64,000 nucleotides of DNA from Escherichia phage Delraymugoa. The stretch lies in sequence record OR896825.1; one strand, given 5' to 3'. The translations under genes and the position numbers were made by a program. The notes under the pieces are model-generated. The model had not been told where the DNA came from. It searched no databases and was given only the letters and a program-made list of their open reading frames with translations. Positions 9,745 through 57,566 of this stretch are shown here, in pieces; within the stretch, counting starts at the first letter, position 1, and every line of letters starts with the position of its first letter.

Positions 9745-9773
9745 ATCTTACTACTCCCTTAATCCGGTGTCAA
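9745..9773 (-). promoter_or_regulatory. sigma70-type early promoter with stem-loop (PeSL-like)
   Basis: Minus strand TTGACA-N17-TAAGAT; -10 lies in GGGAGTA..TACTCCC hairpin (9738-9757). Confidence 0.6.
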
Positions 9774-41113: not shown

Positions 41114-41142
41114 AGTATAACGGGGATTTCTCCCCGCGTCAA
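41114..41142 (-). promoter_or_regulatory. sigma70-type early promoter with palindromic spacer
   Basis: TTGACG-N17-TATACT; spacer contains CGGGGA-TTTC-TCCCCG. Confidence 0.55.
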
Positions 41143-45117: not shown

Positions 45118-45276
45118 TTACTTAATGATACTTACTTTACCAGATCCGTGACAATGAGCACAACACCCATCACCACGCAATCCTGTTCCGTTACAGTGTT
45201 TACACTTCTTCAACGGTAAAGCCATTATAGCAAATAAAGCAATAATGAATACCGAAACTAAATTCTCAATAATCAT
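45118..45276 (-). CDS. small membrane-anchored zinc-ribbon protein (52 aa)
   Basis: Below the track threshold; hydrophobic N-terminus then CKHC..CCAHC; overlaps upstream stop by 11 nt. Confidence 0.35.
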   Translation of the reverse strand: MIIENLVSVFIIALFAIMALPLKKCKHCNGTGLRGDGCCAHCHGSGKVSIIK

Positions 45277-45535
45277 AAATCGCCCTCAGTTCTTTATAGC
45301 CTCCAATGTGCTCGTTGTCAATGAATATCTGGGGGTATACAAATCGGAGGCTCTTTGAGTTCAGCCTCCCCGCCAGTTCTTCAATCATATCACGGTCGGG
45401 AATAATGTCAACCCCGACCTGCTTGAATACTGGTTTAAGTGTATACGGAATACCCAGATCATCCAGTAGCTTCATTGCACTAATACAACCATAACAATGA
45501 TAAGCCTCTTTCGGTATGCCGTATATCTCGATCAT
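45266..45535 (-). CDS. glutaredoxin/thioredoxin-like protein (NrdC/NrdH family)
   Basis: CYGC active site and C-terminal PQIFIDNEHIGGYKEL as in T4 nrdC-type thioredoxin; sits at the T4 nrdH position. Confidence 0.75.
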   Translation of the reverse strand: MIEIYGIPKEAYHCYGCISAMKLLDDLGIPYTLKPVFKQVGVDIIPDRDMIEELAGRLNSKSLRFVYPQIFIDNEHIGGYKELRAIYDY

Positions 45536-46008
45536 TTTTCAGCCTTTAATCTTTCTAGTTCTTCTTCCAGTTCCTTGATCCGTTGGTCACGTTCAAAGTC
45601 ACGCTGCAACTTAGTGGCGAATACTCGTTTAAACTGATTGTAATCATCGATTTTAAACACTTCTTCTTCGCCATAGCGACGCACAGAAACTTCGTAGTTA
45701 TTGAAGAATTGTTGCATCATTGCTTCGGATGATAGCTCTGCTGATACCACTTTAAAATATTGATCTTCTGTAGGCGAAAACCAATTACAAGCATAAAGAT
45801 AAACCTTTTCATTGTCTGGACACTGGTAAGCCTTACCATCGATTTCAATCACAGAAACATATTCAGGTATACTAGATGAATCAATAGCTAAGACTTTAAA
45901 CGCACGGTCCCCGATAAACTCGGAGATCACACGATTCGCATCACTGGTTGCAAATGCTTTACGCGCTTGTTCGTTTTTCCACTGATAGGTCATGCCAACA
46001 ACAAACAT
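45532..46008 (-). CDS. paralog family A member (158 aa; one WKxE..DRKFF-type domain plus coiled coil)
   Basis: MTYQWKNEQARKAF...VIEIDGKAY pattern shared with next three genes; start moved to ATG with GAGG Shine-Dalgarno. Confidence 0.5.
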   Translation of the reverse strand: MFVVGMTYQWKNEQARKAFATSDANRVISEFIGDRAFKVLAIDSSSIPEYVSVIEIDGKAYQCPDNEKVYLYACNWFSPTEDQYFKVVSAELSSEAMMQQFFNNYEVSVRRYGEEEVFKIDDYNQFKRVFATKLQRDFERDQRIKELEEELERLKAEK

Positions 46009-46009
46009 A

Positions 46010-46834
46010 TTACCAACCTCGCTCTTTACCAATCAAAAATTCAACTTCACGACGTTTAATGTCTTCTTGAAGGTCTTTAATCTTCTGGCGATCTTGCATG
46101 ATTTCATCCATCTTGTCAAGTGCCGCAATGAAATCATCGAAACGTTCAAAGGTTTTACCTTCATTTGCTTCGCCAAATTTAACCATTGTCAGGCCGTAAC
46201 GACTACTAAACAGACGTTTCAACTGTCCAACGATTTTAGAATCAGTGGTTATAACTTCCAATTCTTCTACTTCACGAAAGAATTTTCTATCAGAATCAAT
46301 AAACCAGCTAGTTCCTTTATGGTCTCTATCTTCGGTTGCGCTCATTAGAGTATGGTCTTTACCATCAATTTCAATTACATCAATTTGCCCACATGGACGA
46401 ACATTTTTAACAGTAAAAGGTCTATAATTTATTGCTCGTGCAATAACATAATTAAGGTTAGATACGTTTTCAGCATAATGGCAGAAGTCGGTCATAGCAT
46501 TCACATCTTTCCAAGTATAAGTTTTACCAACTTCCCATTTCTGGGGAACTTCTTCAACTTCACGAAAGAATTTTCGATCGAATGGACTAAAGAAATATGT
46601 TGCAGTCCAAATGTCTTTTCCTGTAGCAGTTTTCGCCGTATGATAAACACCGTCTAGCTCTATTGCATTAATCCAACCGTTACCCTCGATCTCGATGATG
46701 GTAAATGGCTTGTCACCAATAGCTGCACTAATATCGCTGTTAAGCGGAGAAAGAACACCTTCTCCGTTAGTAATAAACTCAGTTTTAGCGTTTTCATCTT
46801 TCCAAGTGTAAGTTTTACCAATTTCCCATTTCAT
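46010..46834 (-). CDS. paralog family A member with internal tandem duplication (274 aa)
   Basis: Two copies of WE.GKTYTWKD...IEIDG...DRKFFREVEE within one ORF. Confidence 0.55.
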   Translation of the reverse strand: MKWEIGKTYTWKDENAKTEFITNGEGVLSPLNSDISAAIGDKPFTIIEIEGNGWINAIELDGVYHTAKTATGKDIWTATYFFSPFDRKFFREVEEVPQKWEVGKTYTWKDVNAMTDFCHYAENVSNLNYVIARAINYRPFTVKNVRPCGQIDVIEIDGKDHTLMSATEDRDHKGTSWFIDSDRKFFREVEELEVITTDSKIVGQLKRLFSSRYGLTMVKFGEANEGKTFERFDDFIAALDKMDEIMQDRQKIKDLQEDIKRREVEFLIGKERGW

Positions 46835-46846
46835 AATATATTCCCC

Positions 46847-47311
46847 TTAACCGATTTTATCAAGTTCGTTTAATGCTTTCTCAGCTTCCTGTATAGCTTG
46901 CACTCTTTCCGGCATTTTGTCAAGAAAATCTTTCAACTCTTCAAAACTGGAGATATGACGCAAGGCGTTAGCACCGATAGCCGCATGTGATTTGCATTCA
47001 AAGCGGATTTTATAATTATCCATCGCCAATTTGAGAAGATCAATTAATTTAGATTCTTCTGGAATAATAATTTCTTCAAATCTGCTACGGTCATGATCCA
47101 GAAACCAACAAGATAGACCTACATCGGTTGAACTCATATAAGTTCCATCATGAAGATAAACAGACCGCACGTATCCTTTTTTCGCATCAACCGACGCAAC
47201 TTTAAACGGTAATCGCAGATATTTCAAATAATCAACATCATACCATTTAAAAAATTGGTTTGCATCTTTTACATCTTTCCACGCATAGGTCTTACCAGCT
47301 TCCCATTTCAT
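46847..47311 (-). CDS. paralog family A member (154 aa)
   Basis: MKWEAGKTYAWKDVKDANQF N-terminus; start moved to that ATG. Confidence 0.5.
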   Translation of the reverse strand: MKWEAGKTYAWKDVKDANQFFKWYDVDYLKYLRLPFKVASVDAKKGYVRSVYLHDGTYMSSTDVGLSCWFLDHDRSRFEEIIIPEESKLIDLLKLAMDNYKIRFECKSHAAIGANALRHISSFEELKDFLDKMPERVQAIQEAEKALNELDKIG

Positions 47312-47315
47312 AATA

Positions 47316-47843
47316 TCATCTCTCATTTTTGATACGTGATTCTAATTGGATCATACGGTCGCGCGTTTGTTTGTATTCTCGGATAGCACCGATCCGGCTA
47401 GGCATACCATCCAGTACGCTCTTAATACCTTCTAGGGTAGTAATTTTGGCAATGCTATTATGTAACCCCATCTTATCGATCAACTGAATGTCGTAGGCTT
47501 CCATAAGCAGACCCAGGCGTTCTAAAGTTAGGTCTTCTTCTTTTTCTTCTGAATCTGGAATCTTAGGTTCAATAGTAACTTCGGTAAAGAAACGACGCTC
47601 ACCCGACCAAAACCACACACCAGAACAACCAATAGGGGATTCTTTTAACGTCATAGAGTCGAAATCACTACCAATAATAGTAATTTCTCTAACATCACCA
47701 TCATCGTCAAGGTCTTCTACCCTAAACGGGCGACCAGCCAACAAGTCAACAATACATCTGTTAATAGACGACGAAAATTTAGTCAGTTCGGCTTTCGACG
47801 CTTCGCATTCAATCTTGTAAGTTTTACCAACTTCCCATTCCAT
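47316..47843 (-). CDS. paralog family A member (175 aa)
   Basis: MEWEVGKTYK N-terminus with GAGGTGA Shine-Dalgarno; ..GERRFFTEV motif. Confidence 0.5.
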   Translation of the reverse strand: MEWEVGKTYKIECEASKAELTKFSSSINRCIVDLLAGRPFRVEDLDDDGDVREITIIGSDFDSMTLKESPIGCSGVWFWSGERRFFTEVTIEPKIPDSEEKEEDLTLERLGLLMEAYDIQLIDKMGLHNSIAKITTLEGIKSVLDGMPSRIGAIREYKQTRDRMIQLESRIKNER

Positions 47844-47853
47844 AATAATCACC

Positions 47854-48357
47854 TCAAATAATTTTCACTGGAATACTATTAACAATCTTGTATTGTACTT
47901 GATTGTCAGATCCCCGCCACGGCTTCTTCGTTGGCATATCTTTAATATAACGCCCATCGATGAACATGTCAACTGATTCTACAATTTTTCTTTGCTCATC
48001 ATTCAATTGGTCAAGGGTATAACCGGACCATAGCCAAATATCTTTATTTGGCATCCATGATTTTACTTCATCGATGATCCGCTGTACACCCTTTAAATTG
48101 CGTTTATACAGTGGATCGCCACCTAAGAATGTTAGCCCCTGAATAAAATCAGGTCTAAGCAGGTCCAGAATCAATCCCATTGTATCATCGGTGAATGGTT
48201 CCCCGTTCTTAGGATTGAGTAGGCTAGCATTAAAGCAACCATCACATGCGTGTGAACATCCGGTAACGTAAAGGGAGACTCTCACTCCCTCACCGTTAAC
48301 CATATCACAATCTTTAATATCGGCATAGCGTAGTTTGCCGTATGTATCAGAACTCAT
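47854..48357 (-). CDS. nrdG: anaerobic ribonucleotide reductase activating protein NrdG (radical SAM)
   Basis: CSHACDGC radical-SAM cluster motif; about 167 aa; adjacent to nrdD. Confidence 0.85.
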   Translation of the reverse strand: MSSDTYGKLRYADIKDCDMVNGEGVRVSLYVTGCSHACDGCFNASLLNPKNGEPFTDDTMGLILDLLRPDFIQGLTFLGGDPLYKRNLKGVQRIIDEVKSWMPNKDIWLWSGYTLDQLNDEQRKIVESVDMFIDGRYIKDMPTKKPWRGSDNQVQYKIVNSIPVKII

Positions 48358-48499
48358 ATTCAATTACCCCGAACTCGTTTACAATCTGCGCTTTATAGTA
48401 ACCACCGCGAGATGCTAATAGATAAGCTGGGCTTAGGTATTCGTATTCACGGATTTCTACTTGTGCGTTTTCAGTTTCCCAAATCAGTAAAGTCCACAT
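48347..48499 (-). CDS. small hypothetical protein (50 aa)
   Basis: Start moved to ATG (MWTLLIW) with GGAGAA leader downstream of promoter. Confidence 0.35.
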   Translation of the reverse strand: MWTLLIWETENAQVEIREYEYLSPAYLLASRGGYYKAQIVNEFGVIEYEF

Positions 48500-48541: not shown

Positions 48542-48570
48542 AGTATAGGGGATCTCGCGATCCCCGTCAA
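48542..48570 (-). promoter_or_regulatory. sigma70-type early promoter with GATC-containing palindromic spacer
   Basis: TTGACG-N17-TATACT; spacer GGGGATC-TCGC-GATCCCC carries two GATC sites. Confidence 0.55.
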
Positions 48571-49765: not shown

Positions 49766-51628
49766 TTACATGTGCTTAACGCGGTTTACCATCTCGGAGT
49801 GTTTCCCGTGGTTAAATGGACGCAGATCAACAGATCCAAGATATCCACTAACGCGACGGATAACATTCATCTTTTCCAGATTGTCATTGCCGCAATCAGG
49901 ACAAACAAAACCAGACTCGGTTGCTCTCATTTCCTTAGTAGATCCGCATACATGACATACATCAGAAGGAGTATTAACACCGAAGTAGTGCAATTTATCC
50001 ATTGCATAGTCTACTACAGTTTCAAGACCTTTCAGGTTGTTTTTCATGTCTGGGAACTCAACATAAGAGATCATGCCACCGGACGCCAGCCAGTGATAAT
50101 CTTTCTCAAAGTCGATTTTCTCAAATGGAGTGACTTTCCGGTCTACGTCAAGGTGGAATGAGTTGGTGTACCAGTCTTTATCGGTAGCACCCTTAACAAT
50201 ACCAAATTTCTCTCTGTCCAGTCGATTAAATCGATAGCAAAGACTCTCGGCTGGCGTACCGTAAAGACTAAACCCAAGTCCGGTTTCGTCCTTCCATTTT
50301 TCAGTATAATGACGCAAGATCTTAAGAATATGTTTACCGTATCGCTGCGCATCTTCCGAATCAAACGGATGAACACCAAACAGGACGCTCAATACCTCAT
50401 GTAAACCAATATATCCAAGAGAGATACTAGCGCGACCATCTTTCAGCACTTCCAAAATTTCATCGTTTTGATGAATACGGAAAAATGCACCTTCTGTATA
50501 CAGCACCGGAGCAACATTGGCTTTAGCCCCTTTTAAAGCGTCTACGCGACTCATGAGCGCATCAAAGCAAATAGGCATACGATTAGCTAGCTCTTGTTCG
50601 AATAGCTCAATTCTGCGCATTACAGACGCTTTACCAGCACGACGAGCGACAATAAGGGCAATACGCGGAAGATTCAGAGTCACAACACCTAAGTTATTAC
50701 GTCCGTCTAATACTTCTTCGCCTTTCTCATTATGCCACACACCCAGGAAGCTACGACAACCCATCGGGCTAACCGGAACACTAGATCCAGTGATGCTACG
50801 GTTATTCTTCGCAGAGATATAATCAGGGTAAAGACGCTTACTAGAACATTCCAATGCAAGTTGCTTAATGTCGTAGTTCGGATCTTCCGGTTTAAGGTTT
50901 AATCCTTCTTCTAAGAACATCACCAGCTTAGGAAACACCGGAGTGATACCATCTTTACCTAAACCTTTAGTTCGAACGTTCAGGATCGCTTTCTGAATCA
51001 GTTTTTCTTCCCAGCTAGTACCCATACCAAAGGTTAAAGTCACAAAAGGCGTTTGACCGTTGGTGGAGAACAAAGTGTTGATTTCATATTCCAACGCTTG
51101 ATACCCGTCTAAAGTTTCTTTTTCTGTCTTCTCTTGTGCATAGAGAGTATCAGCTTTGATTCCGTAGGTTTCGGCATCAGCAAGGTGTTTATGATATGTT
51201 TTCTCAACATACGGTGCTAACACCTGATCGATGTTTGCGATTGTGGTCCCGCCATATTGATGACTTGCCACCTGTGCGATAATTTGAGCGGTTACAGCAC
51301 AAGCAACGCCGATTGATTTCGGACTTTCGATTTGTGCGCTACCCAATTTAAAACCATTCTCTAACATGTCTTTGAGATTAACAAGACAGCAGTTAGTAAA
51401 CGGCATAGCGGGTGCATAATCCATATCATGATAATGAATGTCACCGTCTACATGCGCTTTATAGATGTGCTCAGGTAACACGGTGTTAGCAATCTGTTTA
51501 GACACAGCACCAGCAATCAGATCTCGACGTGTCGGGAATGTTCGCGCGTCTTTGTTCGCGTTCTCTTTGCTTACTTCGTTTTCTTTACCCGTTGCGATCT
51601 CTGTAATGTCTTTGATTAGTTTTTCCAT
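49766..51628 (-). CDS. nrdD: anaerobic ribonucleoside-triphosphate reductase NrdD
   Basis: C-terminal glycyl-radical motif RVSGYLG and CxxC zinc ribbon; 620 aa; GGTGA Shine-Dalgarno. Confidence 0.9.
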   Translation of the reverse strand: MEKLIKDITEIATGKENEVSKENANKDARTFPTRRDLIAGAVSKQIANTVLPEHIYKAHVDGDIHYHDMDYAPAMPFTNCCLVNLKDMLENGFKLGSAQIESPKSIGVACAVTAQIIAQVASHQYGGTTIANIDQVLAPYVEKTYHKHLADAETYGIKADTLYAQEKTEKETLDGYQALEYEINTLFSTNGQTPFVTLTFGMGTSWEEKLIQKAILNVRTKGLGKDGITPVFPKLVMFLEEGLNLKPEDPNYDIKQLALECSSKRLYPDYISAKNNRSITGSSVPVSPMGCRSFLGVWHNEKGEEVLDGRNNLGVVTLNLPRIALIVARRAGKASVMRRIELFEQELANRMPICFDALMSRVDALKGAKANVAPVLYTEGAFFRIHQNDEILEVLKDGRASISLGYIGLHEVLSVLFGVHPFDSEDAQRYGKHILKILRHYTEKWKDETGLGFSLYGTPAESLCYRFNRLDREKFGIVKGATDKDWYTNSFHLDVDRKVTPFEKIDFEKDYHWLASGGMISYVEFPDMKNNLKGLETVVDYAMDKLHYFGVNTPSDVCHVCGSTKEMRATESGFVCPDCGNDNLEKMNVIRRVSGYLGSVDLRPFNHGKHSEMVNRVKHM

Positions 51629-51640
51629 TGTATCACCTAT

Positions 51641-51662
51641 GAAAAAGCGGGATTTCTCCCGC
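51641..51662 (-). terminator. hairpin plus U-run upstream of nrdD (attenuator or terminator)
   Basis: GCGGGA-GAAA-UCCCGC followed by UUUUUCAU. Confidence 0.45.
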
Positions 51663-51672
51663 TCGTTGATAG

Positions 51673-52167
51673 TTATTTTACCAGTTCTGCTAATTCTTTT
51701 TCTTTAGCTTCTAGTTCAGCTTTAAGCTGTTTAATCTCTTGTCGCTTCTTATTAGCGGCTTCTTGCTTACTATTTCGGATAACCTGATCTAGATACAACT
51801 CCCAATCCTGAATATTTTTGATAATGTAACCGTCAACATTAATTGGTCGGAGATTCAGTACAGCTTCCAGTTTAGTCGCAAAAACTTTAATTGCTGGCGT
51901 GAAGTATTCATATTCGTTATCTTCAAACCAATAACCTAGACTTGCATTATCAATACGAAGACGAAGTTCAAGATCAAGGTCTTTATCTTCGGTGTAAAGA
52001 TCTTTCACCTGACCCAGCGAACTAACAACAACTTTAAAACGAATTTTATCTACACCACCAAACACATCAGTAAGGATACCAGCAATTGAGCTATTAGCGC
52101 AAGATTGGTCGCTGAATGCGTCAAGGTTTTCTTTAGTTACAGTATACCAAACATCTTGTACCCACAT
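51673..52167 (-). CDS. hypothetical protein with C-terminal coiled coil (164 aa), possible family B relative
   Basis: Own promoter; C-terminus QEIKQLKAELEAKEKELAEL. Confidence 0.45.
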   Translation of the reverse strand: MWVQDVWYTVTKENLDAFSDQSCANSSIAGILTDVFGGVDKIRFKVVVSSLGQVKDLYTEDKDLDLELRLRIDNASLGYWFEDNEYEYFTPAIKVFATKLEAVLNLRPINVDGYIIKNIQDWELYLDQVIRNSKQEAANKKRQEIKQLKAELEAKEKELAELVK

Positions 52168-52197
52168 AATATAATCCTCTCGTTGTTAAGTGGGAGT

Positions 52198-52225
52198 ATT
52201 ATAGCATACTCCCTTCGCATGTCAA
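52198..52225 (-). promoter_or_regulatory. sigma70-type early promoter with stem-loop (PeSL-like)
   Basis: TTGACA-N16-TATAAT; -10 inside GGGAGTA..TACTCCC hairpin; -35 overlaps upstream stop codon. Confidence 0.6.
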
Positions 52226-53400
52226 GCACTAACTTTTTTCTTTACTGCTTTCACCTTCTGGCGAATTGCTCGAATCTCTTCGATCTCTTTTTCAGTATCT
52301 TTAACAATTTCTTTGCGATTCTGAATATCTTTATCGAGATTATCATCAAGTTTAGGCAGCATGTCAATCAAGAACTTTTTAAGGTCTTTCAGGTTGCGAA
52401 TAACAGTACCTTCACCCATTACCGCCACGCCTACACCATCCGGCAGATCACCAAACAGTTTAACCAGTTCAGACAGATGATCATGATCTTCTAGTGCTTC
52501 TTCCGGTTCAGATGGCAGTTCAACAAAGTAATAACGTTCATCATTGCTGATCAGGTGATACCAGCAAAGCCCAAAAGATTTAGGAGTATATTCTACACCA
52601 CCAACTTCAACTGCATCAACACTTCCGAAAGAATCTACTTTAGTTACCTTAAATCCATGTTCCAGCGTTTTAATAATTTCAATAACATGACTGGATACGG
52701 TTTCAGTATTAAACCAATGAGGCAAATTATGTGGATTTGGCTTGTATCGTTCGCCTACTTTAAATCTCTGACCACGCTCTTGCATACGGACATATTCAAC
52801 TCGCGTGATTTCCGCGAAGTATTCAAATTCGCTACCGTCAAACAAGCAATTCCATTGATCACAAAAACGGTCCGCCTTGACGGTTTCACCTTTCGCGGTG
52901 ATCATGGTAGCTGATCCGTGCAATTCTTCTTCAACTAAAAAGCCATATTCGACAAAATCAACAAGTTTCATGGCTTCTTTGTGCTCTGGGTCATGCTCTC
53001 CCCAGAATCGCTTAAATTCTTGCAAACCTTCTGGGGTAAACGAATAACATTTACCTTTTTCAAAGTAAGTCGGCATTGCATCCTCTTTCTTGTTCATCGC
53101 TTCGTATGCCTCTTTTGAGATACGTTTAAAGTATTTGCGCTCATTGTGCATAATCATAGTAGACCAATAATAAACGATATCCTCAGCGGAATAAACTACA
53201 TCTCCAGCTTCAATAGTAATAACATGACCGTGGTCATCTTTTTCTAATACTTTAAAGCCCTTTTCTACGATTTCAGCAACCCGAATATGACCACGGCGCG
53301 AAGCATCGGTCAGAATAATTGAATAGCGAGAAAAGTCTAGAAACTCATCTTTACCGCCTTCACGGAATGCATAGTAATGACCTTCAAAGAATTTAGCCAT
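52222..53400 (-). CDS. paralog family B member with three internal repeats (392 aa)
   Basis: Repeats containing GFKV(L/T)..D..G.V and (N/D)ER(K/Y)YF motifs; Lys/Glu-rich coiled-coil tail. Confidence 0.55.
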   Translation of the reverse strand: MAKFFEGHYYAFREGGKDEFLDFSRYSIILTDASRRGHIRVAEIVEKGFKVLEKDDHGHVITIEAGDVVYSAEDIVYYWSTMIMHNERKYFKRISKEAYEAMNKKEDAMPTYFEKGKCYSFTPEGLQEFKRFWGEHDPEHKEAMKLVDFVEYGFLVEEELHGSATMITAKGETVKADRFCDQWNCLFDGSEFEYFAEITRVEYVRMQERGQRFKVGERYKPNPHNLPHWFNTETVSSHVIEIIKTLEHGFKVTKVDSFGSVDAVEVGGVEYTPKSFGLCWYHLISNDERYYFVELPSEPEEALEDHDHLSELVKLFGDLPDGVGVAVMGEGTVIRNLKDLKKFLIDMLPKLDDNLDKDIQNRKEIVKDTEKEIEEIRAIRQKVKAVKKKVSA

Positions 53401-53431
53401 AATATAATCCTCTCGTTGTTTAGACGGGAGT

Positions 53432-53460
53432 ATCTTACTACTCCCGTTTCATCATGTCAA
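53432..53460 (-). promoter_or_regulatory. sigma70-type early promoter with stem-loop (PeSL-like)
   Basis: TTGACA-N17-TAAGAT; CGGGAGTA-N6-TACTCCCG hairpin. Confidence 0.6.
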
Positions 53461-54023
53461 GCGTTAAATGACTTTTGGATCTCTTTCAGTTCAGCTACTT
53501 TATCGGCGCTGAATTTAGCGTAGGCATCATGTCGAATAATTTCACTTTCAAGAAAGGTTTCCAGCCGAGATCTATTTTCAATAAGGAACTCTTTCAGGTC
53601 TTCCGCGTTCTTGATAAAGATTTTATTGTCGGTAATGTCATCTTCAATCGCAAAGGAGATAGAGCGAACTTTACCAAACAAGTTAATCAGATCTTCCAGA
53701 GATTCTTCTTTCTTAACTGGTTTCATTTCTTCAAACTGCTTTTTAGTGATGCGTTTAAAGTATTTGCGCTCGTTTGCAGCAATCAGAACAGATGCACCTT
53801 CATACCCATGAGTTTCTACCAGATACACACGCCCCATCGCATCAACAGTGAGAACTTTAAAGCCGTTACAAAGCACGTCATACAAGAACTTATTATGTTG
53901 CGGACATCGCTTGATAAATTCTGCGGCTGTTTCTGCATTACGGAAAGTGTAATAACGACCTCGTTCAAAAACAGCATCATTTGAAGACTTAGCCGGATAC
54001 AATTTATACGTTTTCTGTACCAT
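53457..54023 (-). CDS. paralog family B member (188 aa)
   Basis: GFKVLTVDAMGRV...NERKYFKRITKKQFEEM; start moved to ATG with GAGGA Shine-Dalgarno. Confidence 0.5.
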   Translation of the reverse strand: MVQKTYKLYPAKSSNDAVFERGRYYTFRNAETAAEFIKRCPQHNKFLYDVLCNGFKVLTVDAMGRVYLVETHGYEGASVLIAANERKYFKRITKKQFEEMKPVKKEESLEDLINLFGKVRSISFAIEDDITDNKIFIKNAEDLKEFLIENRSRLETFLESEIIRHDAYAKFSADKVAELKEIQKSFNA

Positions 54024-54037
54024 AATATAATCCTCTA

Positions 54038-54310
54038 TCATTTCACTAATTGAACAGCACGGAACAGAATGCGCTCACACGGAAGCAGCATAAATTCCCA
54101 ACGCGGATCAAAGTCTTTAGCGGTGTATGTTTTCCCATCAACCGAGATTTCACTTACATAACCAACAGGTGACACTTTAAGAACAGTAAACCCATTCTTG
54201 ATGACTTCGTAGGTATCTTTCACCCCTTCGTATTCATCATCTAAGAAGTCTTTATGTGCTTGCTCAGATTTAAAAACATAGGCCACACCGGATTTAAACA
54301 TCTTACGCAT
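54038..54310 (-). CDS. paralog family B member (90 aa)
   Basis: GFTVLKVSPVGYV motif; start moved to ATG (MRKMFKS) with AAGGAG Shine-Dalgarno downstream of promoter. Confidence 0.45.
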   Translation of the reverse strand: MRKMFKSGVAYVFKSEQAHKDFLDDEYEGVKDTYEVIKNGFTVLKVSPVGYVSEISVDGKTYTAKDFDPRWEFMLLPCERILFRAVQLVK

Positions 54311-54341
54311 TGTTGATTCTCCTTCTTGATTAGATGGGAGT

Positions 54342-54370
54342 ATTTTACTACTCCCATTTCTTATTGTCAA
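54342..54370 (-). promoter_or_regulatory. sigma70-type early promoter with stem-loop (PeSL-like)
   Basis: TTGACA-N17-TAAAAT; GGGAGTA-N6-TACTCCC hairpin. Confidence 0.6.
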
Positions 54371-55161: not shown

Positions 55162-55974
55162 TCAATCTACGTTAGTTACATAAACTTCTTGCGTATCAGA
55201 AGACTTACCACCTGAACGATCTAGGCAATAGGTCTTATTCAACAGGACGCAGTTTAAATCATTCCGCTTGATAAAGTCAAGGAGATGATCATTTACCTTT
55301 CCCTTATGATGTGTGACATTACTGATACCAAACTGAAAACCACGCGCCATAATAGATTCTACCCACTGATAGAATTTAATCTCTTCCTCGTCACTCCAGA
55401 ACTTATTGTATTCCGCAGAAGTGATAAGGTACGGCGGGTCCAAATAAACGAAATCACCTGGCAAGATCTCGATCTCGTCATAACGACCAGACGTAAAACT
55501 GATTCGACCGTCTTTGTTTTCTTCCTTAAAATTCAGGACACGCTCTATCGCGTTTTCGTTAAAAGTCCGGCGACCAAAATTAGCATTAAATTCTCCCTTC
55601 CGGTTATGGCGGTTAAGGTTGCTAAAACTGTGCTGAATCAACACAAACAGCGATAGAGGGTCTGGATTCTCGTTATACTTCTTACGGAATGTCATGTAAG
55701 CGTCTTTATCTTCGCGAGACAAACCATTTTCGGCAATAATACGCTTGATCGTAGAAACCGGATCAGGACACTCGTCAATCGCTTTGTACGCGTCTATTAA
55801 GCGGTGATCATAGTCATTAGCCAACACATCCCCTTCGACGTACATAGACACGCTCAAGCCGCCACAAAAGGCATCAACAAAGCGGTTATAGTGCTTAGGG
55901 AAATACTTACTAACACCCGGCAATAACTTTTCCTTATTGCCAGTATAGGGAATTAAACCTAATGCTTTCTTCAT
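55162..55974 (-). CDS. dam: DNA adenine methyltransferase Dam (N6-adenine, GATC-type)
   Basis: FCGG AdoMet motif, DPPY catalytic motif, FVYLDPPYLIT..YNKFWS..EE block shared with T4 Dam. Confidence 0.9.
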   Translation of the reverse strand: MKKALGLIPYTGNKEKLLPGVSKYFPKHYNRFVDAFCGGLSVSMYVEGDVLANDYDHRLIDAYKAIDECPDPVSTIKRIIAENGLSREDKDAYMTFRKKYNENPDPLSLFVLIQHSFSNLNRHNRKGEFNANFGRRTFNENAIERVLNFKEENKDGRISFTSGRYDEIEILPGDFVYLDPPYLITSAEYNKFWSDEEEIKFYQWVESIMARGFQFGISNVTHHKGKVNDHLLDFIKRNDLNCVLLNKTYCLDRSGGKSSDTQEVYVTNVD

Positions 55975-57223: not shown

Positions 57224-57532
57224 TTATTTCACGTTAACGCCGTCATCAATCCAGCCGACGCTATTTGGTTTAACAGTTTTACCATAGGATGCATACTTAA
57301 TCAAGCATGGTTTAACATCATTATCAAATCTTCCTAAACGTACTCCCAAATCAGGAATATCCATGTATGCGGCTTTATATCCCCATGTGCCATATTCAGA
57401 ATCAATCTCAACCGGACGGCCTTTAAAAGCATACACTACACCGTGACGGTCAACGATAACATAGCGATAGCCAGCCGGAAGATACACAGTTTCGCCGTAA
57501 ACTTTAACTGGAGTAGCAGAAGAGATAAACAT
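57224..57532 (-). CDS. hypothetical protein (102 aa)
   Basis: Start moved to ATG (MFISSATP) with GAGGA Shine-Dalgarno downstream of promoter. Confidence 0.45.
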   Translation of the reverse strand: MFISSATPVKVYGETVYLPAGYRYVIVDRHGVVYAFKGRPVEIDSEYGTWGYKAAYMDIPDLGVRLGRFDNDVKPCLIKYASYGKTVKPNSVGWIDDGVNVK

Positions 57533-57566
57533 AATATAATCCTCACATCGTTCATTTGATGCGGTC

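Follow-up and report, generated by a model that had tools for sequence, protein, structure and literature searches.

The 64,000-nucleotide (nt) stretch analysed here (the window), taken from Escherichia phage Delraymugoa (OR896825.1), carries between nrdD and gene 49 an array of four minus-strand genes for proteins of 90, 188, 392 and 164 amino acids (aa; Table 1). In GenBank, 57 phage records match this 2.8-kb region at 90-99% identity, with GEC-3S as the top match (98.7%), and those that bear a taxonomy or organism name are Krischvirus, the RB49-like T4-type coliphages. The gene order annotated in GEC-3S and RB49 is gene 49 (endonuclease VII), the 90-, 188- and 392-aa genes, the 164-aa open reading frame (ORF) and nrdD. 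In RefSeq both the 392-aa and the 188-aa gene bear the label 'goF mRNA metabolism modulator', and the former is called frd.2 in RB49, phi1 and JSE. A preliminary description, made from the sequence alone, had listed three related genes here, whose coordinates and strand agree with both annotations; all three are indeed related, and the 164-aa gene is a fourth member that it left out. The array very probably consists of GoF/Frd.2-type barrel domains set in three transcription units defined by promoter(early) stem-loop elements (PeSLs), a reading to which the proposals on origin and function made below are attached.

Table 1. Coordinates of the array, its regulatory elements and other family members in the window (dG, folding free energy in kcal/mol; z, z-score; RBS, ribosome-binding site).
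Feature	Position	Strand	Sequence or remarks
PeSL 1	54342-54370	-	TTGACA-17-TAAAAT, 11/12; drives the 90-aa + 188-aa unit
PeSL 1 hairpin	54334-54357	-	ATGGGAGTA-GTAAAA-TACTCCCAT, overlapping the -10; dG -13.8, z -3.7
90-aa gene	54038-54310	-	Single GoF-like barrel, no C-terminal domain; phrog_16115
188-aa gene	53457-54023	-	One barrel (aa ~20-100) + C-terminal helix, beta-hairpin, long helix
PeSL 2	53432-53460	-	TTGACA-17-TAAGAT, 10/12
PeSL 2 hairpin	53424-53447	-	ACGGGAGTA-GTAAGA-TACTCCCGT; dG -15.2, z -3.5
23-nt leader/RBS, 392-aa gene	53398-53420	-	AACAACGAGAGGATTATATTATG
392-aa gene	52222-53400	-	Three tandem barrels + C-terminal domain; frd.2 / goF
392-aa gene, r1	53080-53400	-	
392-aa gene, r2	52768-53076	-	
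392-aa gene, r3	52477-52767	-	
392-aa gene, C-terminal domain	52225-52476	-	
PeSL 3	52198-52225	-	TTGACA-16-TATAAT, 12/12
PeSL 3 hairpin	52192-52213	-	GGGAGTAT-GCTATA-ATACTCCC; dG -14.5, z -3.3
Second exact 23-nt leader/RBS copy	52165-52187	-	Ahead of the 164-aa gene
164-aa gene	51673-52167	-	Divergent barrel (aa 1-~95, helical insert) + same-type C-terminal domain
Intrinsic terminator	51642-51664	-	GAGCGGGA-GAAA-UCCCGCUU + U run; dG -16.7, z -5.5
Family A: 166-, 274- (two barrels), 159- and 178-aa genes, abutting or overlapping	45532-47852	-	Between nrdH and nrdG
Ninth, solitary family member, 211 aa	27786-28421	-	Adjoins a putative DNA helicase gene

Pairwise comparison establishes the repeats as a family. 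The GFKV..VD..G and NERKYFKRI-type motifs on which the preliminary description had relied are present, and the all-against-all comparison that it had proposed returned significant similarity (E from 1.4e-9 to 5e-5) when the proteins were cut into domains and BLASTP was run with a database size of 20,000. Repeat r1 of the 392-aa protein matches r3 at 1.4e-9, the N-terminal domain of the 188-aa protein at 4.7e-8, r2 at 3.2e-6 and the 90-aa protein at 6e-6, and r3 matches the last of these at 5e-5 and the 188-aa N-terminal domain at 3e-5, in support of the three internal repeats claimed earlier. A hidden Markov model (HMM) of five domains from the array (family B) gives each of these repeats an i-Evalue of 1e-36 to 3e-41; these values are circular because the model was built from those same five domains, and the independent evidence is the pairwise BLASTP.

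Searches of all 331 window ORFs of at least 45 aa with this HMM extended the family to the genes between nrdH and nrdG (family A). The five-domain model matches the genes of 274 aa (46010-46834; 2e-11, in two domains), 166 aa (3e-6) and 178 aa (7e-4), and after one iteration also the 159-aa gene (4e-11) and the 211-aa gene (8e-6), while the 164-aa gene moved from 2e-3 to 3e-5 before its inclusion. Since these searches link all nine genes, families A and B form one superfamily and are not just loosely similar, as had been thought. The expectation of more than ten related domains is borne out by a total of 12 barrels in the nine genes, six of them in the four-gene array. With the same HMM, GEC-3S yielded no further copies over positions 1-150,000, the rest of that genome being covered by the window. 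In the 392-, 188- and 90-aa proteins the five barrels form one cluster (21-36% identity), those of family A fall mostly in a second group, and the 164-aa barrel is an outlier. PHROG families that were built separately cross-match each other; the 90-aa protein also matches phrog_622, 5347 and 8944.

Beyond the window the family is small. Among 1.84 billion representatives, searched exhaustively with HMMER, no more than 96 clusters matched at E<=1e-3; nearly all of these are 120-280 aa long with the domain at the N terminus, and about a dozen have two or three domains. Two long candidates (P0060, 2073 aa, and P0112, 1446 aa) were judged spurious, being internally repetitive and unlike the phage proteins of the family. 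A three-barrel metagenomic relative (P0067) has no counterpart among GenBank phages, and sequence searches of Pfam, NCBIfam, Rfam and the PDB returned nothing significant.

The domains can be named through phage T4, where three early proteins (GoF, Frd.2, MotB.1) are one family with a five-stranded barrel of 'LSm-like' (SH3-topology) fold at the N terminus, a flexible linker and C-terminal domains that vary, FeoA and IdeR being the nearest solved folds (Kim et al. 2025, PMC12152347). Over residues 1-99, T4 GoF (141 aa) scores 45.1 bits against an HMM of the 12 window domains and 47.9 bits against the iterated HMM; Frd.2 reaches 17-20 bits against the window HMM (19.7 with the 12-domain version) and MotB.1 a weak 8-9 bits (9.2 with that version), and a phmmer comparison of Frd.2 with the 392-aa protein gives E 5e-5. 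None of the array proteins matches the Pfam models for LSM or Hfq, by which Sm1/Sm2 motifs were judged, or that for FeoA. They are members of the GoF/Frd.2 family, not Sm/Hfq or FeoA proteins proper. In GEC-3S, the T4-syntenic position (L003 5129-5972) lacks goF, cef, motB and motB.1; a 39.2-like (FmdB-like) gene there leads straight into dexA.

Structure prediction, which had been put forward as a check, agrees with this assignment. AlphaFold2 (AF2) predicts bent, antiparallel five-stranded N-terminal barrels of SH3-like topology, with a predicted local distance difference test score (pLDDT) >90 within the barrels. For the 188-aa protein (mean pLDDT 78; >90 at residues 20-100) the modelled order is strand b1, two helices, b2-b3-b4, a short helix, b5, a linker, a helix, a beta-hairpin and a helix of ~45 residues. 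The 164-aa model (pLDDT 89.6) has the same element order and the same C-terminal module. A domain-linker-domain architecture, with a dip in pLDDT at the linker, is predicted for the 164-, 188- and 392-aa proteins, and the 90-aa protein is a barrel only. Foldseek searches of BFVD returned Krischvirus paralogs and the annotated GoF of phage VR7 (both at probability 1.0 for the 164-aa protein), together with a large number of uncharacterised proteins that come almost entirely from T4-like phages, often several per phage. The closest solved folds to the barrel are the Mib repeat, Tudor, FeoA and the SH3 domain of IdeR. As for the coiled-coil tails reported earlier, long helices are indeed predicted, and three of the four array proteins have a C-terminal module in which a short helix and a beta-hairpin precede a long helix; tail sequence similarity is significant only between the 188- and 392-aa proteins (2.4e-4) and between the 159- and 178-aa proteins (8e-6).

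One further feature lies at the boundary of r1 and r2. There the 392-aa gene (53076-53093, minus strand) reads AAGAAAGAGGATGCAATG, with a Shine-Dalgarno-like GAGGA 4 nt ahead of an in-frame ATG. This ATG opens r2 (MPTYFEKG), which resembles the gene starts MAKFFEG and MRKMFKSG, and the element may be left over from a gene fusion or serve as an internal start.

The promoters of the array are PeSLs, elements defined in RB49 and phi1, where there are about 51-52 per genome (Arbiol et al. 2010, PMC2839356). In those phages they are experimentally strong promoters whose stem-loops terminate transcription, and nrdD is known to be flanked by hyperplastic sites (PMC2839356). A sigma-70 consensus scan, scored out of 12, located three near-consensus promoters whose -10 elements end exactly at the positions that the preliminary description had given (52198, 53432 and 54342), each overlapped by a stable hairpin; the promoter at the PeSL 1 position is also annotated in GEC-3S. 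The stems (GGGAGTA...TACTCCC) are 7-9 bp long with 6-nt loops, and the -10 lies within the loop and the 3' arm. Each element is intergenic, its 5' edge carrying the upstream stop codon and its 3' edge a start codon with a Shine-Dalgarno sequence. The stop codons of the 188-aa and 392-aa genes both lie inside the following -35 (GCT-TGA-CAT), of PeSL 2 and PeSL 3 respectively.

The three cassettes are thus real, but the earlier claim of one promoter per gene does not hold. The 188-aa gene has no PeSL of its own; it begins 14 nt past the 90-aa stop with only the RBS GAGGATTATATTATG, and PeSL 3 (52198) serves the 164-aa gene. With three PeSLs for four genes, the transcription units are therefore the 90- and 188-aa genes together, the 392-aa gene and the 164-aa gene; the terminator, also annotated in GEC-3S, closes the array ahead of nrdD (ATG at 51628). 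Downstream of PeSL 2 and PeSL 3 stands an identical 23-nt leader, common to the 392- and 164-aa genes though their barrels are only 21% identical; the 64 kb hold exactly two exact copies, where none is expected by chance. A copy with three mismatches (AACGATGTGAGGATTATATTATG) lies at 57530-57552 on the minus strand, ahead of another small gene. From the near-consensus sigma-70 promoters and the activity of the equivalent RB49/phi1 PeSLs, all four array genes would be early genes.

Cassettes also occur elsewhere in the window. Two more of the array type lie at 9773 and 10353, and a second type is found at 41142, 48570 and 58270 (-35 starts on the minus strand). The cassette at 48570 probably drives nrdG and family A, which has no internal PeSL.

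Comparison across genomes, the other check proposed earlier, found the whole array in 55 of the 57 records, with orthologs of the 392-aa protein all 391-392 aa long. In the Krischvirus KFS-EC, gene 49 comes 63 nt after the 392-aa gene, so the 90- and 188-aa genes are missing. What is gone is exactly the module of 910 bp that lies between the PeSLs at 54370 and 53460, which constitute a 78-nt direct repeat spaced 910 nt apart. The left part of the KFS-EC junction aligns with the PeSL at 54370 (from the end of gene 49 through TAGTAGTTGACA), whereas the right part matches the 53460 PeSL together with its leader. Such a chimeric PeSL is what the published excision model (PMC2839356) expects, left at an indel boundary between close relatives, and it directly supports the removal or addition of whole modules here by recombination between PeSLs. 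To this extent the proposal of cassette-mediated modular duplication stands; the original duplications, at 21-36% amino-acid identity, retain no trace of cassettes having caused them. KFS-EC differs in family A as well: from nrdH to nrdG it has one gene fewer than the window, three against four, and no 178-aa gene is annotated. Its remaining 154-aa gene starts in a MKWEVGKTY-like manner, which may point to unequal crossing-over between the 5' ends of paralogs.

Exchange between phages also operates at the scale of single domains. In 100-nt bins the array is mostly 91-100% identical to JK32 and RB49, and identity falls in the 164-aa barrel (65-74%, JK32 only), in the first half of the 188-aa barrel (80-87%) and around r3 (78-84%). 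The Nei-Gojobori ratio of nonsynonymous to synonymous divergence (dN/dS) is 0.14-0.45 wherever a segment has more than a handful of substitutions. All four array genes are functional and under purifying selection, and diversifying point selection on the barrels was rejected on these values. Synonymous divergence (dS) jumps within genes, from 0.02 in the C-terminal domain of the 188-aa gene to 0.5 in its barrel and from 0.015 in r1 to 0.30 in r3, and reaches 1.08 in the 164-aa barrel. As these jumps show, barrel-sized segments have been replaced by recombination between Krischvirus lineages and did not diverge through fast point mutation.

Variation among relatives follows the same domain boundaries. 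Krischvirus alleles of the 164-aa gene (P0147-P0158) fall into two groups (88-99% and 62-72% identity) that differ almost only in the barrel, the last ~65 residues being nearly invariant. Family A (45200-48400) is more mosaic than family B, with many Krischvirus records matching in two to four pieces at 75-93% coverage. Metagenomic variants carry identical tails on different barrels, or one barrel in place of two in the window. In other Krischvirus-like contigs the two-barrel 274-aa gene is represented by forms of 177-185 aa that have a single barrel, one retaining barrel 1 (P0003) and another barrel 2 (P0001) on a common tail; barrel number therefore varies within the genus.

The array would have originated by ancient local duplication of genes and domains. 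Fusion of neighbouring genes may account for some of the multi-barrel proteins, and selection or gene conversion would hold the cassettes and the 23-nt leader nearly identical. For function we offer, tentatively and by analogy with T4, that these are abundant early proteins whose barrels would bind RNA or a host factor of RNA metabolism and adjust mRNA stability, as GoF(D25Y) does, and whose helical C-terminal domain would dimerise. In T4, the D25Y mutant stabilises gene-41 mRNA post-transcriptionally, and the goF suppressor sites are D25Y and G84R (PMC12152347). At the column of GoF D25, ungapped and three residues past an invariant Phe, five of the 12 window barrels have F, F, Y, F and W, and at that of G84 (NEAGFF) five have K or R (NERKYF, DRKFF, ERRFF), with a conserved Arg before it in nine. 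This pattern is suggestive, not proof, that the T4 suppressor changes shift GoF towards states common among these barrels.

Several observations weigh against the picture drawn so far. Because the AF2 alignments contain paralogs, the 164-aa model is a consistency check only. A common tail profile was not significant in leave-one-out tests (E 0.0015 to 5), so the case for tail homology across the superfamily is one of predicted secondary structure only. With such low identities, the duplications are too old to be linked mechanistically to PeSLs. In T4, wild-type GoF and MotB.1 have only slight effects in reporter assays, and deletion of goF or motB.1 gives no burst-size or latent-period phenotype (PMC12152347). 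Furthermore, 11 of the 12 barrels are acidic or near-neutral (isoelectric point 4.3-6.6) and only the 188-aa barrel is basic (9.3), which argues against general direct RNA binding and makes a protein-binding role a serious rival.

According to that rival, each paralog would dock onto a different host protein, such as a factor of defence or housekeeping, so that the set forms a repertoire for host takeover or counter-defence with the C-terminal domain as the common effector or oligomerisation part. We regard this as possible without calling it likely. The acidity of most barrels fits it, as do solved neighbours (Mib repeat, Tudor, FeoA and the SH3 of IdeR) that mostly mediate protein contacts, and the same can be said of barrel-sized swaps next to nearly identical C-terminal domains, of a copy number that differs between the window phage (nine genes) and KFS-EC (six), and of the unremarkable burst size and latent period of single T4 deletions. 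However, dN/dS below 0.5 in every segment gives no sign of diversifying point selection, and the sole functional datum for the family, RNA stabilisation by GoF(D25Y), lies on the side of mRNA metabolism.

A second rival concerns the making of the array and not its function. PeSLs could be ordinary, strongly selected early promoter-terminators with no causal part in building it, the paralogs having arisen by tandem duplication and unequal crossing-over between coding repeats. Family A speaks for this, with four paralogs and no internal PeSL, and with only three genes (no 178-aa gene annotated) in the PeSL-free array of KFS-EC; so do the single PeSL common to the 90- and 188-aa pair and the antiquity of the paralogs. 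At the locus itself, on the other hand, the KFS-EC junction is a PeSL chimera, two paralog stop codons sit in the same GCT-TGA-CAT context of a -35, and the identical leader precedes two genes with such dissimilar barrels; PeSL mini-circles, moreover, have been demonstrated in RB49/phi1 (Arbiol et al. 2010, PMC2839356). We consider this rival rather unlikely.

A role as helpers of the adjacent nucleotide-reductase genes, in the handling of iron or redox state for instance, is very improbable for these proteins. Of the 12 barrels, eleven do flank nrd genes (around nrdD, nrdG, nrdH and nrdC), T4 frd.2 also lies within a nucleotide-metabolism cluster, and FeoA is among the top structural neighbours. 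Yet no array protein matches FeoA in Pfam, GoF has no metal-binding histidines (Kim et al. 2025, PMC12152347), T4 goF and motB.1 lie away from nrd genes, the flanks of nrdD are hyperplastic, and KFS-EC retains its nrd genes after losing three paralogs. That the similarity is due to chance or composition, with no real family behind it, is already refuted: identities are low (15-36%) and some members emerged only by profile iteration in a small database, but pairwise E-values go down to 1e-9, T4 GoF matches independently at 45-48 bits, separately built PHROG families cross-match, and AF2 folds and BFVD neighbours agree.

Both components of the array have published counterparts. The window proteins resemble the T4 GoF/Frd.2/MotB.1 family (PMC12152347) in their N-terminal barrel of ~90 aa, linker and C-terminal domain, in having FeoA and IdeR among the closest solved folds, probably in being encoded by early genes, and in their distribution mainly among T4-like phages. 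Unlike T4, with its three dispersed single-barrel genes, the window phage has nine genes and 12 barrels in two arrays, and its proteins carry one, two or three tandem barrels, include a barrel-only form (90 aa) and end, where a C-terminal domain is present, in a long coiled-coil-like helix. A polypeptide with GoF-type barrels in tandem is also seen next to cef in Karamvirus (CC31, PG7), to whose goF region the 254-aa two-barrel relative P0064 is 32-34% identical; there, however, the two-barrel GoF is a single gene at the T4-syntenic site, and no three-barrel form was seen. From Hfq/Sm and FeoA, which are likewise small beta-barrels of SH3-like fold, the barrels differ by a two-helix insert between strands 1 and 2, by being mostly acidic and in that no ring oligomer is predicted or known for them.

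Similarly, the cassettes agree with the PeSLs of RB49/phi1 (PMC2839356; Comeau et al. 2014, PMC4122927), which come from the same phage group, in the TTGACA-N16/17-TATAAT promoter with a stem-loop over the -10, in the upstream stop codon in or next to the -35, and in the Shine-Dalgarno sequence and start codon downstream. A module deletion that leaves a chimeric PeSL between related phages is the model of Fig. 3 in these papers. Nothing essential differs, and the identical 23-nt leader of two paralogs is an added detail. The PeSL papers name only nrdD as PeSL-associated and discuss neither the array locus nor the KFS-EC deletion, and Kim et al. 2025 mention neither RB49, Krischvirus, tandem barrels nor arrays. 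Literature searches for frd.2 in RB49, goF in Krischvirus and RB49 paralogs found no account of the array. Nor did they find a description of how far the family has expanded in Krischvirus (12 barrels in nine genes, with none where T4 has goF), of a protein with three barrels, of the helix-hairpin-helix tail that members share, of mosaicism at the scale of barrels or of the KFS-EC chimeric junction at this locus. The preliminary description was right about the array; it recognised neither the cassettes as PeSLs (PMC2839356) nor the repeat as a GoF/Frd.2 barrel (PMC12152347).

Two further features deserve mention. The 211-aa GoF-like gene sits directly downstream of a putative gene for the replicative DNA helicase, the counterpart of gene 41, and it is gene 41 whose mRNA GoF(D25Y) affects in T4. 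In GEC-3S, an HNH homing-endonuclease gene (756 nt; L001 6557-7312) separates nrdC from dam; the window lacks it, and nrdC abuts dam (55162-55165).

As GoF-type barrels and PeSLs have both been published, the array is a tidy example and not a new kind of system, and neither its GoF variants nor its cassette loss alters current concepts. A more speculative view, which we hold to be improbable as it stands, is that the GoF-type barrel is a swappable recognition module, of which one, two or three copies sit on a helical tail that is conserved and dimerises. The dozen or so barrels kept by Krischviruses would then act as combinatorial early regulators of post-transcriptional events or host factors, renewed by exchange at domain boundaries and by gain and loss of PeSL cassettes, and paralogs with an aromatic residue at GoF-25 or with K or R at GoF-84, the residues that make T4 GoF an mRNA stabiliser, would be natively active. 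If true, the long-unexplained goF phenotype would gain a natural function, of which T4 displays the activity only as a gain-of-function mutant. Ever since the rho/nusD suppressor studies, the role of wild-type GoF has been puzzling, and the window phage offers twelve natural variants of its barrel, some with suppressor-like residues, one basic (188-aa) and some in tandem, a panel well suited to testing the binding of RNA or host factors. The locus is also a clean natural case of PeSL-mediated cassette loss, in the form of the 910-bp module, with domain-scale mosaicism alongside.

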